NCBI GenBank assembly: GCA_964637745.1
Contig: CAZWYB010000004.1
Coordinates: 1 to 32,219 of the forward strand
Direction of reading: 5' to 3'
Source of the DNA: an uncultured Pseudomonadota bacterium
GTDB taxonomy: Bacteria > UBA10199 > JACPAL01 > GCA-016699445
DNA: 32,219 bases
Shown: in pieces, positions 21,133 to 32,219 of the stretch
Layout: each line of letters starts with the position of its first letter
Numbering within the stretch: the stretch's first letter is position 1
Position numbers and translations under genes: made by a program
Notes under the pieces: model-generated
Told to the model about the DNA's origin: nothing
Database searches by the model: none
What the model saw: the letters and a program-made list of their open reading frames with translations, nothing else

Positions 21133-21167
21133 TTAAAAAAAGGAAAGGGCGGGGTTTCCCCCGCCCT
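21133..21167 (-). terminator. Rho-independent terminator after the delta-60 repeat gene
   Basis: The minus strand reads GGGCGGGG-gaaa-CCCCGCCC (perfect 8-bp GC stem, 21147-21166) followed by TTTCCTTTTTTTAA. Two further hairpins lie between the stop codon and it (21177-21203 and 21208-21224). Confidence 0.85.
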
Positions 21168-21237
21168 CCCTGAGCCCCTCGGAAACGATCGCTCGTCCCG
21201 AGGTATGTACATCATCGTGATGTAGAATTTCTTTGAT

Positions 21238-28909: not shown

Positions 28910-31900
28910 TTATTGCTTGGGACAATCCGCCGGGATGCTGGAGGCAGGTCCGCAATATTCTTTGAGGGCGCAGACGCCGTCGGCGTGGCCGTCGTCGATC
29001 AACTCCGCTCCGAAGGGATTGCAGGTCGTGGTCGTGTTGCTCGTCTGGTCGTTGACGGTGATTGTACCCGTGAAGGTGAAATTATTCTGATTGCAGAGGC
29101 GGTAACCGCCCGTCGTGAAATCCATCGAAAAAAGCCCGTGATCGCTTCCCGCCGCAAAAGCGAGCGCGGCGCCGTCGCTCACGCCGGTCACGTCATTGGA
29201 CTCCGCATGTTCCTGAACGGGAATGAACCGGCAACAACTCCCGTTCCCTCCGCCGCAACCGGATGCATCATCTTGGAACCTCGTCACCTTTCCGTCGGAC
29301 CCCTTGCAAACGCACTGGGCCTCCTGAAAGGGATCGTTTCCGACGCAGGCGTCATCGTCACGGCAACCTCCCGAGGCTTGGACCTGCGCGAACCGTTGTT
29401 CCAAGACCGTTGGGTCGGTGCACGTCTGGCCGATCACCAAGGCGGAACGGAAGATGCCGTTGAAGAGGACGGCGTTCTGGGTGTTGTTGGGGTCGCGTTT
29501 CTGGCAATTGATGAACCTCACCAAGACCGTCGTTTCGTTCAACGTACAGACGCCGTTCGGGTCGTCCTGACCTGACGGATCGGTCTTGCGGGCCTCGGAC
29601 CAACAGCTTAAGAGCTCGTGTTTCCCTCCCGCATTGTCGCACTCGACGAATTCCGTCTCCGGTGGAACCGAATTGCAGAGCGAGCCGGGTCCGAGGCAGA
29701 CGCCGTCGGCGTTGCAGGTGGCGTTGTTGCCCAAGGCGTTGCAATTGCTGTCGCGCTCGGCCTGCGTCGACCCGCTGTCGCAACGGTAACTGCAATAATT
29801 GCGGCCACTGGCCGGATCTTTCGCGCAGACGGGACCGTTGGGAAAGAGCACCGCGCAATCCGCATCCTGAACACATTGCAAATTATCCACTTCCGCCCAT
29901 TTGAGGGTCAGGGCCACGACCGGATCCTCGAGACCCAAGGCGTTCACGGCGAGGGTCGCCGAAGAACTGCTGGTCACGCTGGCGCCGGGGGTCGCCACAT
30001 CGAACGTAGAAGGGATCTCGAGCGGGGCCGACGGCGTCGCCGGCGACGGGCAGCCGGGACCGAAAAGCGCGATGACGGCGATCGCCGCCCCCATGACCTT
30101 CGTCCCGAGATGCAAATAGCGTTTTATCAAACCGCGGAAACGATGTTTTCCTTCCGGCTGATTTTTCTGATCTTGGCGATCTTTGTGGGGCGATAAGAGG
30201 GGGTTCGAGTCATCCTTCAAATGACCAGGCCTGACCTTTTCCCAATCCTCGTACATTTGGAGTCTTTCCCGGGAGCGACGGTAACGATCCCGAAACTCCT
30301 CGGGAAGGGCTTCCGCCAAGGATTCGATGATCTGAATCCCTTTTTCCAGCTGACGTTCCGCCTCGTCCATGCGCCCCATCGCCGACTCCGCCTTGAACCT
30401 TGTGTGATAAACAGAAGAGAGTGTCTCATGAAACCGCTGCTCGAGACAACGATTCTCCAATTGCGTTAATATCTCCAAGGCCGGAACCCTCTCCCCTTTG
30501 CGGATCATCATCCGGACGCGCAAGAGGTCCGTCCGGATCACGAGCTCCTCGTCCCGGTGATCGGTTCGGTCCCCCTCGATAAAACGCAGGCAGGAGGCGT
30601 CGTCGTTCCGATCCAGGCTCATTTCGGCCAACAAATAGCGGCTCCAGCCGTCGATTCCCGCGTCCTGAAGCTCCTCTCCCATCCGAAAAGAGGCCTCCAA
30701 AAGCTTGTGGGCCCTTTCGGTATCTCCGGTCTCCCGAAGCCGGCATCCCTCCATGAGAACGAACCAGGCCGTCAACGCTTCATCGGACGTGCTCTCCGCC
30801 AGGCGGCGGCCCTTTTCAAAACATTCGGCCGCGGCCTCCTCCATATTCAGCCTGAGGTAGGCGCCCCCGAGGCGGAGAAAGTTGAACGCGACGTCGCGAG
30901 GGGACCCGAAACGTTCCTGATAGGAAATCGTCTTGCGGAGGAGGGGTAGACAATCCGCGTAACGCGCCTCCTTCATCAAACCGTACGTCAGATTGCCGAG
31001 GATGGAAAAAACGGCCGCCAACGCGCCGGACGATTCCGCCAAGGCCAAAGCCTCCCGCAGATGACGGATCCCCTCCTCCCATCGCGCGCCCTGAAGGAGG
31101 GCGAATCCGAGGCCGTTCAGGAGCGTGATCCTCTCGGCCACGCGAGCCGTTCCGATCCTCTCCAAACGTTCCCGGTAGAGCCGAACGGCCCCGTCGCGGT
31201 CGCCCTTTAAAGACAGAAGAAGCCCGAGGCCGTTGTTCGTGACCTTAACGCGATTCTCCGGCTCCAACGCCTCTTCCTGAACGAGCGTCTCGCGAAAAAT
31301 CCTTTCCGCCTCGGTCCGATTCCCGGCCTGGAGCTCGACGTTGCCGACGGCGTTTCGCAGCAGAATTCTACGCAGGCTTCCCTCATGCGGAATCAATGCG
31401 ATCGCCTTTTCGAAATTTTCTCGAGCCGAAGGGAAATCGCGTTCTTTGTAGGCGATCGTGCCTTTCATTTCCCAAAAAGCGGAGGACGGAAACGAGCCCA
31501 ATCTTTGAAGGTTCTCGCGCGCCTGCTGATACGCGCCGGTCAGAATGAGGAGCCGTGCCGACTTGAGAGTTAATTCCTGCCACTCCTCGGAACCCTCCTC
31601 TTCGAGTTCGCGGGCCTTCACCAGACACCGGCAGGCGGCGGCCGTCCGGCCTTCCGCGGCGAACCGATCGGCCTCCTCTTTGTATAAACGCAAAGCCTCG
31701 TCCTCCTTCCCGCCCCGGGCCATATGAAACGCGACTTCCTCCGACGGGGCCGTTTGCAAACGGTCGAGACCGTCCGCAATGCGACGATGAAGGAGCGCCT
31801 TCTCTTCCGGCGCGAGAAGTCGAATCAGGTCGAGAGCGAGGGCTTGGCTGGAGAGTTGGTAGGTTCCCGTGAGCTCCCCTTCGACCAGCCCCTCCCGGAT

Positions 31901-32219
31901 CAGGAGTTGAAGCCGGTCCCGAAAAACCCCGGGATCCGCGCCAAGGGTTTTTGCCAATTCGGATTCTTGGACGGGCCGAAAAAAAACCGCCATGAGATTC
32001 AGCAAATCCTTTGTTTCCCGGGGAAGAGGCTCGATCCGTTTTTCATAGAGGAGGCCCACATCCGCCTTGGGAAGAAGGTCTTCGATTGATTCTCCCCGGT
32101 AGAGATGCGGCGCCAGGAATCTCACGCTTTCCGCCATCAGCAAGGGGAGCCCTCCCGAATACCGATGGATCGCCTCCGCCGCCGGGATCACCGGGCTGGG
32201 CGGACTCCCCGATATGGCC
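28910..32219 (-). CDS. Large TPR-repeat signalling protein (5' end outside window) with one TM helix and a C-terminal Cys-rich extracytoplasmic domain
   Basis: The frame is open to the window edge, and the track M at 32191 is an internal GTG. The first ~140 aa resemble the helical/winged-helix segment that follows STAND/AAA NTPase domains. About 500 aa of TPR-like repeats follow. TM segment VMGAAIAVIALFGPG. The last ~330 aa contain about 40 Cys (DADCAVLFPNGPVCAKDPASGRNYCSYRCD...). Confidence 0.8.
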   Translation of the reverse strand, partial: AISGSPPSPVIPAAEAIHRYSGGLPLLMAESVRFLAPHLYRGESIEDLLPKADVGLLYEKRIEPLPRETKDLLNLMAVFFRPVQESELAKTLGADPGVFRDRLQLLIREGLVEGELTGTYQLSSQALALDLIRLLAPEEKALLHRRIADGLDRLQTAPSEEVAFHMARGGKEDEALRLYKEEADRFAAEGRTAAACRCLVKARELEEEGSEEWQELTLKSARLLILTGAYQQARENLQRLGSFPSSAFWEMKGTIAYKERDFPSARENFEKAIALIPHEGSLRRILLRNAVGNVELQAGNRTEAERIFRETLVQEEALEPENRVKVTNNGLGLLLSLKGDRDGAVRLYRERLERIGTARVAERITLLNGLGFALLQGARWEEGIRHLREALALAESSGALAAVFSILGNLTYGLMKEARYADCLPLLRKTISYQERFGSPRDVAFNFLRLGGAYLRLNMEEAAAECFEKGRRLAESTSDEALTAWFVLMEGCRLRETGDTERAHKLLEASFRMGEELQDAGIDGWSRYLLAEMSLDRNDDASCLRFIEGDRTDHRDEELVIRTDLLRVRMMIRKGERVPALEILTQLENRCLEQRFHETLSSVYHTRFKAESAMGRMDEAERQLEKGIQIIESLAEALPEEFRDRYRRSRERLQMYEDWEKVRPGHLKDDSNPLLSPHKDRQDQKNQPEGKHRFRGLIKRYLHLGTKVMGAAIAVIALFGPGCPSPATPSAPLEIPSTFDVATPGASVTSSSSATLAVNALGLEDPVVALTLKWAEVDNLQCVQDADCAVLFPNGPVCAKDPASGRNYCSYRCDSGSTQAERDSNCNALGNNATCNADGVCLGPGSLCNSVPPETEFVECDNAGGKHELLSCWSEARKTDPSGQDDPNGVCTLNETTVLVRFINCQKRDPNNTQNAVLFNGIFRSALVIGQTCTDPTVLEQRFAQVQASGGCRDDDACVGNDPFQEAQCVCKGSDGKVTRFQDDASGCGGGNGSCCRFIPVQEHAESNDVTGVSDGAALAFAAGSDHGLFSMDFTTGGYRLCNQNNFTFTGTITVNDQTSNTTTTCNPFGAELIDDGHADGVCALKEYCGPASSIPADCPKQ

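Follow-up and report, generated by a model that had tools for sequence, protein, structure and literature searches.

Can a promoter type shared by neighbouring genes that mostly match no described family point to a functional system, and what would such a system do? The question is raised by the right-hand part of a 32,219-nucleotide (nt) stretch of DNA from an uncultured bacterium (the window, meaning that stretch at its full length), where one extended sigma-54 promoter sequence recurs in front of two operons, C-B and D-E, and of a single gene, F. A sequence-only reading had seen in these genes an island of envelope- or secretion-associated functions switched by sigma-54. What the window holds is three putative promoters (P1 to P3), two predicted operons and one monocistronic gene, with products that carry sequence features of export or membrane association. 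We lean slightly towards the view that they form a chromosomal cluster of sigma-54-dependent units and, overall, a gated surface or effector program with the D protein as its scaffold. The regulatory part of this explanation we hold with considerable confidence; the functional part is put forward tentatively and is rather doubtful.

Promoters P1 to P3 and the genes behind them

The cluster comprises the following features:

P1, 23363..23381, minus strand: TTGGCACCCACCTTGCTCT, an exact TTGGCMC-N5-TTGCTCT sequence in front of the C-B operon
P2, 23586..23604, plus strand: TTGGCACGCCTCTTGCTCT, an exact TTGGCMC-N5-TTGCTCT sequence in front of the D-E operon
P3, 28792..28810, minus strand: TTGGCCCTCCCTTTGCTCT, an exact TTGGCMC-N5-TTGCTCT sequence in front of F
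AT-rich divergent control region, 23382..23585, no strand: recognised by GC content, repeats and palindromes
Gene C, 22884..23339, minus strand: open reading frame (ORF) with a supported coding frame for a glycine-zipper protein of 151 amino acids (aa), without signal peptide
Gene B, 21238..22887, minus strand: delta-60 repeat (DUF5122) beta-propeller by Pfam and NCBIfam profiles, with a signal peptide
Intrinsic terminator closing the C-B operon, 21143..21170, minus strand: 12-bp stem with 9 GC pairs, then a T-run
Gene D, 23630..26776, plus strand: 1048 aa, first gene of the D-E operon
Gene E, 26791..28248, plus strand: 485 aa, second gene of the D-E operon
Gene F, 28285..28764, minus strand: low-complexity, lipoprotein-like protein of 159 aa with a signal sequence; monocistronic unit

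The extended motif TTGGCMC-N5-TTGCTCT has three exact copies in the window. Each is co-oriented with its gene, and 41-45 nt separate TGGC from the start codon, with a Shine-Dalgarno sequence between them. P1 lies 41-47 nt upstream of the possible start codons of C, of which the second ATG, at 23333, is the more likely, and an AAGGAG ribosome-binding site (RBS) stands between; P2 is followed by AAGGAG at 23615-23620 and by the GTG start of D at 23630; and the ATG of F is found 45 nt downstream of P3. Since the 19-nt pattern was taken from the hits themselves, the independent canonical consensus TGGCAC-N5-TTGCW was also tested, allowing at most one mismatch, over the whole window and on 100 dinucleotide-preserving shuffles. 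It matched at 5 places, compared to 0.51 expected, and 0/100 shuffles reached 5. P1 and P2 are exact and P3 has one mismatch, while the two extra matches (13431, minus strand; 20385, plus strand) both lie inside genes and have a broken -12 GC. All three good sigma-54 sites of the 32-kb window are thus grouped within 5.5 kb, and the housekeeping genes are preceded by none. The consensus counts and shuffle statistics exclude chance promoters. By their -24 GG and -12 GC elements, their spacing and their placement, P1 to P3 are predicted to be real, non-random sigma-54 promoters, and the claim that three promoters share one extended sequence is borne out. Such promoters stay silent until a bacterial enhancer-binding protein (bEBP) hydrolyses ATP, which makes for tight, signal-specific switching.

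A one-mismatch copy of the extended motif, TTGGCACCGGGATTTCTCT, is present at 20384-20402 on the plus strand, antisense within the neighbouring FGE-fold gene. It is probably inactive, since the mismatch costs it the -12 GC.

P1 and P2 are divergent and flank one shared AT-rich region of 204 bp. Positions 23400-23599 have 25-29% GC compared to about 57% for the window, so that the control region is AT-rich, as first described. It contains a perfect palindrome, TGTTAATTAACA, at 23526-23537, with degenerate related copies at 23441-23452 and 23551-23562, which may be enhancer or architectural-protein sites. A search for an enhancer motif common to this region and the DNA upstream of P3 returned just weak AT-rich 14-mers with 2 mismatches.

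The start of B overlaps the end of C by 4 nt, which indicates that C and B form an operon, and the terminator at 21143-21170 stands between B and the FGE-fold gene. Protein C consists of a (GxxxG)n glycine zipper followed by a Q/M-rich helical C-terminal half, and has no match in Pfam, NCBIfam, PADLOC or PDB sequences. Protein B has an N-terminal signal peptide and a Pro/Ala/Thr-rich C-terminal tail. It scores well above the cutoffs of the delta-60 family (TIGR02608, 192.6 bits compared to 76.5; PF17164, 105.1 bits compared to 27), and its profile matches and signal peptide mark it as a bona fide family member that is predicted to be secreted. The family is without known function: we found nothing functional in the literature on delta-60 repeats or DUF5122, nor were sigma-54 control or pairing with a glycine-zipper protein found described as features of the family.

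Gene E follows D after a gap of 14 nt with the RBS AAAGGAGGA. In its product, a hydrophobic helix (229-259) occupies the centre and a TPR-like helical repeat the C-terminal part; beyond weak TPR hits, there is no family match in Pfam, NCBIfam, PADLOC or PDB. The single-sequence AlphaFold2 model of E is unreliable (predicted local distance difference test, pLDDT, 44); the order of secondary structures in this poor model is N-terminal helices, a small beta domain, the hydrophobic helix and the C-terminal helical repeat. A signal sequence whose lipobox (LCSAC) is imperfect marks protein F, which has no match in Pfam, NCBIfam, PADLOC or PDB sequences. The proposal that the targets are exported or membrane-associated is consistent with these sequence features: a signal peptide in B, a lipobox-like site in F, and zipper or hydrophobic helices in C, D and E.

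The D family and its loci in other uncultured bacteria

The N-terminus of D is disordered and S/T/P-rich, its N-terminal half is TPR-like, and its C-terminal end is a coiled coil. An Ala/Gly-rich hydrophobic helix (749-767) and a second hydrophobic helix (about 905-925) are kept across the family in the hydropathy profile. D has no match in Pfam, NCBIfam, PADLOC or PDB sequences and none in the genome-collection scan, and its exact sequence is not on record. A word-index search of 5.8 billion proteins with D and E returned the window's own proteins only, as did a word-index search with the D family alignment A1. When 1.84 billion cluster representatives were scanned exhaustively with HMMER/phmmer, D proved to have 13 distant relatives (P0003-P0015; E values from 6e-28 to 1e-3), which are 1099-3101 aa long and about 24-32% identical to it. 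The first description of the targets as unrecognisable stands for C, E and F, which have no family, and holds only in part for D. The relatives align over D residues ~73-1035, with invariant and nearly invariant columns, and since other members have extra N- and C-terminal regions, D looks like the bare core of the family. Judged by the alignment, these giant proteins make up a rare family not described before, of which D appears to be a minimal member.

The extra C-terminal regions are diverse. That of P0007 is kinase-like: VAVK and DFG motifs can be recognised, and there is a Pfam Pkinase match that stays under the cut-off of that family. A HEGEHWRH (HExxH) motif is found in the C-terminal extension of P0008 and P0010, and a DGHHR (ParB-like) motif in the C-terminal module of P0014. 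Domain-level support exists for the kinase only, the others being motif-level hints. The AlphaFold2 model of D, computed on a 14-sequence alignment, is all-helical with a mean pLDDT of 66.8, and is confident and TPR-like at residues 60-450. When it was compared with the PDB using Foldseek, nothing was found at E<=1e-3 and generic TPR superhelices were the only resemblance; likewise, the D family profile gave TPR matches only among PDB sequences, in the relatives' N-terminal extension. SycD/PcrH were considered as structural kin of D and rejected, as Foldseek matches them as TPRs only.

DNA was fetched around 11 D relatives. In one lineage (L081-L090, L086, L097), D-like genes reside in same-strand clusters of 20-40 kb made up of mostly unannotated giant genes, which include two or three D paralogues, a 1040-1190-aa family and a 390-450-aa family. 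These clusters also carry a TMEM43-family protein, HSP20 (its genes are present in two relatives' clusters) and a HopF/AvrPphF-ORF-2-like protein (by Pfam; firm in L097), and the L081 cluster has two FGE-sulfatase genes. They are always preceded by a solitary FlhB/SctU-like gene (Bac_export_2) and a divergent gene of 430-480 aa; no other type III or flagellar genes stand beside the FlhB-like gene in the fetched flanks. Full-length FlhB/SctU-like genes are the following:

L081, 7380-8528
L083, 30-1184
L087, 7302-8459
L097, 633-1784

Between loci, identity is 75-82% for the FlhB-like and TMEM43 proteins (79-82% for the FlhB-like protein) but only 18-57% for the cluster proteins, which indicates that the latter evolve fast. 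Eleven cluster proteins have in common an N-terminal leader of about 80 residues (M-x-x-G-x-x-G-x-G-G ... RDLSTPG ... YD). A hidden Markov model (HMM) of this leader had no match in all six frames of the window, and the start of E, MGFTIGEGEG, was rejected as a candidate leader on that basis. Modules are also shuffled: a stand-alone protein of 518 aa is 55% identical to residues 1156-1472 of a 1752-aa D paralogue, and in L093 (662-1270, minus strand) a neighbouring protein of 202 aa is 34% identical to residues 1165-1291 of P0014, its ParB-like C-terminal region. The 202-aa protein might serve as a spare module, or else as an antidote-like partner.

Promoters in the relatives' loci were sought with the strict motif TGG[CT]-N7-TTGC. 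It occurs 27-77 nt upstream of the D-like gene in 6/12 relatives' loci (L081, L082, L087, L089, L093, L097), and also upstream of many neighbouring cluster genes; in L092, a 200-bp AT-rich tract and a TGGCAT-N5-TTGT variant lie upstream of the D-like gene. In all, a sigma-54 promoter immediately precedes the D-like gene in 7 of the 13 relatives' loci. In five loci, 14/25 motif occurrences fall within the zone 15-120 nt upstream of genes, a zone that makes up about 3% of strand positions. With one ORF caller throughout, 15/35 motif hits were 15-120 nt upstream of ORFs in D-family loci, compared to 6/103 in controls (1.28 Mb). The consensus of twenty sites is TTGGCAC-N5-TTGCTCT, as in the window, and the -12 extension, TTGCTCT or TTGCTTT, is present in the promoters of distant lineages too; it may be a general sigma-54 preference and not the mark of one activator. 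On this motif evidence, sigma-54 control appears to be a recurrent, not universal, property of the D family.

In two of these loci (L081, 9973-10001; L087, 9972-10001) the promoter begins just 28-29 nt before the called ATG, so that transcription would start on the start codon itself or only a few bases away from it. Leaderless sigma-54 transcripts may account for this, or starts that were wrongly called.

At the end of the D-family cluster of L089 lies the gene of a large activator:

bEBP of 1429 aa, L089 20329-24618, minus strand: Pkinase, second P-loop, GAF, Sigma54_activat and Fis-type helix-turn-helix (HTH)

Its Walker A sequence is GETGTGKE, and GAFTHA replaces the canonical GAFTGA loop. 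The D-family sigma-54 promoters elsewhere, this bEBP flanking the L089 cluster, and the FGE-domain genes also found in the L081 cluster are new support beyond what the sequence-only reading had offered. On that reading, genes and promoters should travel together. The sigma-54 promoter is indeed kept for the D family, while B, C, E and F are absent from the D-family loci, all of them distant; what persists at long range is D with its type of promoter and, perhaps, a neighbour of FGE fold. As there is no close-relative genome (best HemB identity 67%), these loci speak neither for nor against co-occurrence at short range. When E, C, F and X363 (a 363-aa ORF of the window, 18980-20071) were aligned with all protein families of the relatives' clusters using hhalign, all probabilities were <1%. 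A 150-aa gene upstream of the D-like gene in L092 was considered as a C homologue and rejected, as it encodes a coiled coil, not a glycine zipper.

Genomic setting of the cluster

The left 19 kb of the window hold rplM, rpsI, argC, cobA-hemD, hemC, a methyltransferase, a patatin-like lipase, an FHA protein, ribonucleotide reductase, polA and hemB. Searches of the window for tRNAs and Rfam families found none, and no Sigma54_activat, transposase or integrase domain is present in any large ORF of the window, as first stated. The GC content of the cluster, 54-59%, is that of its flanks, save for the control region, and codon usage is native in D, G and X363, in D and G as much so as in the housekeeping genes. 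With housekeeping flanks and no tRNA, integrase or transposase, the cluster is chromosomal and lacks the marks of a mobile island; the idea of an island, where that word implies mobile or foreign DNA, is not supported. HemB has a best identity of 67% among 185,579 species representatives, with matches spread over Nitrospirota, Desulfobacterota-like and other phyla, and none of 80 HemB-matched loci (L001-L080) encodes a cluster protein. By these identities the contig appears to come from a deep-branching, essentially unsampled lineage; this under-sampling of the host partly explains the orphan status of the cluster genes.

Two further genes adjoin the cluster, and these as well as B, C, D, E and F show frame-specific codon bias in the frames given:

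FGE-sulfatase-fold gene, 20221..21093, minus strand: PF03781; separate transcription unit beyond the C-B terminator
Gene G, 28910..32219, minus strand: MalT-like TPR region, one transmembrane (TM) helix and a Cys-rich, predicted extracytoplasmic C-terminal domain

The FGE-domain protein lies just outside the cluster, as had been noticed, and scores 41.8 bits against PF03781 (cutoff 23.3) over profile positions 68-253 of 255. It has no Cys after RGGSWND. The active-site Cys pair of FGE follows the RGGS(W/F) motif, and lacking that pair the protein would be non-catalytic, a binding module and not an enzyme; proteins of the GldK/PorK type also have a non-catalytic FGE fold. On the other side, G is the flanking TPR transmembrane protein of the first description, with TPRs and a single TM helix at residues 693-717. 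As its reading frame continues beyond the end of the window, the N-terminus is cut off. It is counted as a flanking gene, with at most a possible tie to the cluster. The first residues of G (GGLPLLMAE...) resemble the region after the STAND/AAA ATPase domain in MalT/LuxR-like proteins, and the full protein may be an NTPase-TPR-TM-Cys-rich sensor of unusual topology.

Three side observations concern the left part of the window. The polA gene is found within 0-8 kb of a D-family gene in three otherwise unrelated contigs:

L094, 10323-10910
L095, 23892-26642
window, 12977-15781

PolA of the window is 50% identical to that of L095, and the proximity could be remnant synteny or coincidence. Between polA and hemB, a GC dip to 50% at 16500-17950 coincides with a 289-aa ORF (17080-17949, plus strand), which matches no family and whose codon usage is the least native of the whole window (GC at third codon positions, GC3, 0.54); it may be a foreign gene. 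Finally, the ribonucleotide reductase ORF (11160-12995, minus strand), read from a TTG start, overlaps the end of polA (12977-15781, minus strand) by 19 nt, and its true start is probably further downstream.

What the cluster may be

In the mechanism that we propose, an ATP-driven bEBP encoded elsewhere would open P1 to P3, the units being silent before, and the C-B, D-E and F units would probably fire together. The activator would have its binding site in the AT-rich DNA that separates P1 from P2. Sec would export B and F, while C, with its glycine zipper, D, with Ala/Gly-rich helices behind a TPR scaffold, and E, with a TM helix and TPRs, would act at the membrane. D would be the functional core, a TPR scaffold with membrane-inserting helices. 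Given that its relatives carry enzyme modules and lie among fast-evolving, shuffled neighbours of HopF-like and kinase type, this core is most likely a membrane-targeting or translocation scaffold. We infer a signal-gated program that would remodel or arm the cell surface, effector- or translocator-like rather than metabolic. Sigma-54 regulons typically govern the cell exterior (PMC3162934).

Several observations weigh against this explanation. The window contains neither an activator, nor rpoN, nor secretion machinery: hallmark structural components of type I to type IX secretion systems, Tad and contact-dependent inhibition (CDI) are absent from 20.2-32.2 kb. D has neither the C-terminal enzyme modules nor the N-terminal region that its relatives possess, nor the leader common to their neighbour proteins, and its model is of low confidence at 839-940, which covers part of the hydrophobic region. 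Among the relatives, L094 and L095 are without a sigma-54 motif despite AT-rich upstream DNA. Moreover, phmmer and hhalign found no homologues of B, C, E, F or X363 in the D-family loci, so that adjacency and promoter similarity are the only ties that argue for co-function of the three units.

A rival possibility, which we rank as a real though minority one, is that there is no functional unit at all: three unrelated lineage-specific sigma-54 genes would stand side by side in an organism in which, as in many former Deltaproteobacteria, numerous activators work with sigma-54, and the extended motif would be merely its general consensus. That D is nowhere else found in the company of B, C, E or F fits this, as does the TTGCTCT or TTGCTTT found at -12 in distant lineages too, because of which the shared extension is no proof of a common activator. 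The P1/P2 palindrome was not found upstream of P3. Codon usage also differs: it is native-like in D and weaker in B, C, E and F (and the FGE gene), with a GC3 of 0.60-0.64 compared to 0.67-0.75, which hints at different histories. Chance juxtaposition accounts poorly, however, for three good sites within 5.5 kb of a 32-kb window with none before a housekeeping gene, for the divergence of P1 and P2 around one shared 204-bp AT-rich region, and for the relatives' sigma-54 promoters, which are likewise clustered on contiguous genes of one locus. A developmental program, in which sigma-54 would switch on a new surface set for a resting or infectious cell type, as in Myxococcus development or the reticulate-to-elementary body (RB-to-EB) conversion of Chlamydia, seems improbable. 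The window has no sporulation or developmental marker, and such a program overlaps the gated surface program without excluding it. Myxobacterial development involves eukaryote-like-kinase-linked regulation, which the kinase-GAF bEBP of L089 resembles, and former Deltaproteobacteria are where delta-60 repeat proteins typically occur (TIGR02608 description); in Chlamydia, sigma-54 controls late membrane proteins and effectors (PMC7482065). We give least credence to an envelope-stress or membrane-maintenance response of the phage shock protein (Psp) kind (PspF acting on PspA), in which sigma-54 and an activator would induce helical proteins that bind a damaged inner membrane and stabilise it. Reminiscent of it are the AT-rich DNA upstream of the sigma-54 promoters, the long helical, putatively membrane-associated products D and E with their hydrophobic helices, and the HSP20 genes of two relatives' clusters. 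Yet no PspA/IM30, PspB, PspC or PspF domain is present in any ORF (Pfam, NCBIfam), the exported propeller and the lipoprotein are not Psp-like, and the kinase and HopF-like enzyme modules and fast divergence among D relatives are atypical of housekeeping stress proteins.

Comparison with known systems returns us to the gated surface or effector program. Its closest analogue in logic is the sigma-54/CtcC regulon of Chlamydia trachomatis, in which sigma-54 controls membrane remodelling and the type III effector arsenal (PMC7482065). In both cases TGGCAC-N5-TTGC-type promoters stand before many lineage-specific membrane proteins and secreted effectors whose fold is unknown, the activator gene lies apart from its targets, and the outcome would be an all-or-none switch of surface composition. 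The targets have, however, no sequence relationship, no type III system is seen in the window and the organism is unrelated. The HrpR/S-hrpL-hrp cascade of Pseudomonas syringae and the VasH-hcp/vgrG regulon of Vibrio cholerae are also bEBP-gated sets of secreted or translocated proteins, and the D relatives' clusters resemble them in holding a HopF/AvrPphF-like protein beside an FlhB/SctU-like export-gate gene. Unlike in those regulons, no structural genes of type III or type VI secretion systems (T3SS/T6SS) occur in the window or the fetched flanks, and sigma-54 would act directly at nearly every gene, not via a secondary sigma factor. Like polymorphic toxins, D relatives keep a core and vary the C-terminus (kinase-like, HExxH extension, ParB-like), with one module found stand-alone; unlike them, the D of the window is a core that ends in a coiled coil without an extra module, no pattern of immunity genes emerged, and PAAR, Rhs, LXG, MIX and TPS trafficking domains were not detected in the window or in D relatives. 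PADLOC gave 0 hits for 8 proteins. By the Pfam, NCBIfam, PADLOC and PDB searches, the cluster does not appear to belong to a secretion, toxin, defence or stress system that has been described, in agreement with the earlier failure to match one.

A bolder form of the effector or translocator idea is unlikely. It supposes an undescribed system, gated by sigma-54 gene by gene, in which giants built of a TPR scaffold and an Ala/Gly-rich helix that inserts into membranes deliver themselves or enzymes into a membrane or target cell. The cargo modules would be the kinase, the HopF-like ADP-ribosyltransferase and the metalloprotease-like extension; in the best-sampled lineage, the partners would be the FlhB/SctU-like export gate, the 80-residue leader and the Ser/Thr-kinase-GAF bEBP. 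The window would then hold a stripped-down version, with the D core, its partner E, the glycine-zipper protein, the propeller and the lipoprotein.

Whichever function applies, the regulation is of a known kind and the proteins are undescribed, above all those of the D family, whose link to sigma-54 is conserved. Few bacterial regulatory signals can be reliably read from sequence, and sigma-54 promoters belong to these few; here they tie unannotated genes together, repeatedly across distant uncultured lineages. They offer a handle on a family of giant proteins (1000-3100 aa) that is invisible to Pfam, NCBIfam, PADLOC and PDB and that has the hallmarks of interaction or attack proteins, namely C-termini of modular build, kinase and HopF-like modules, and fast divergence beside neighbours that are conserved. 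Should the family turn out to be a delivery device, it would represent a new class of surface or effector machinery with a new regulatory logic, one sigma-54 promoter per gene; if not, the cluster is still a clean example of sigma-54 acting over lineage-specific envelope proteins in a deep-branching bacterium.

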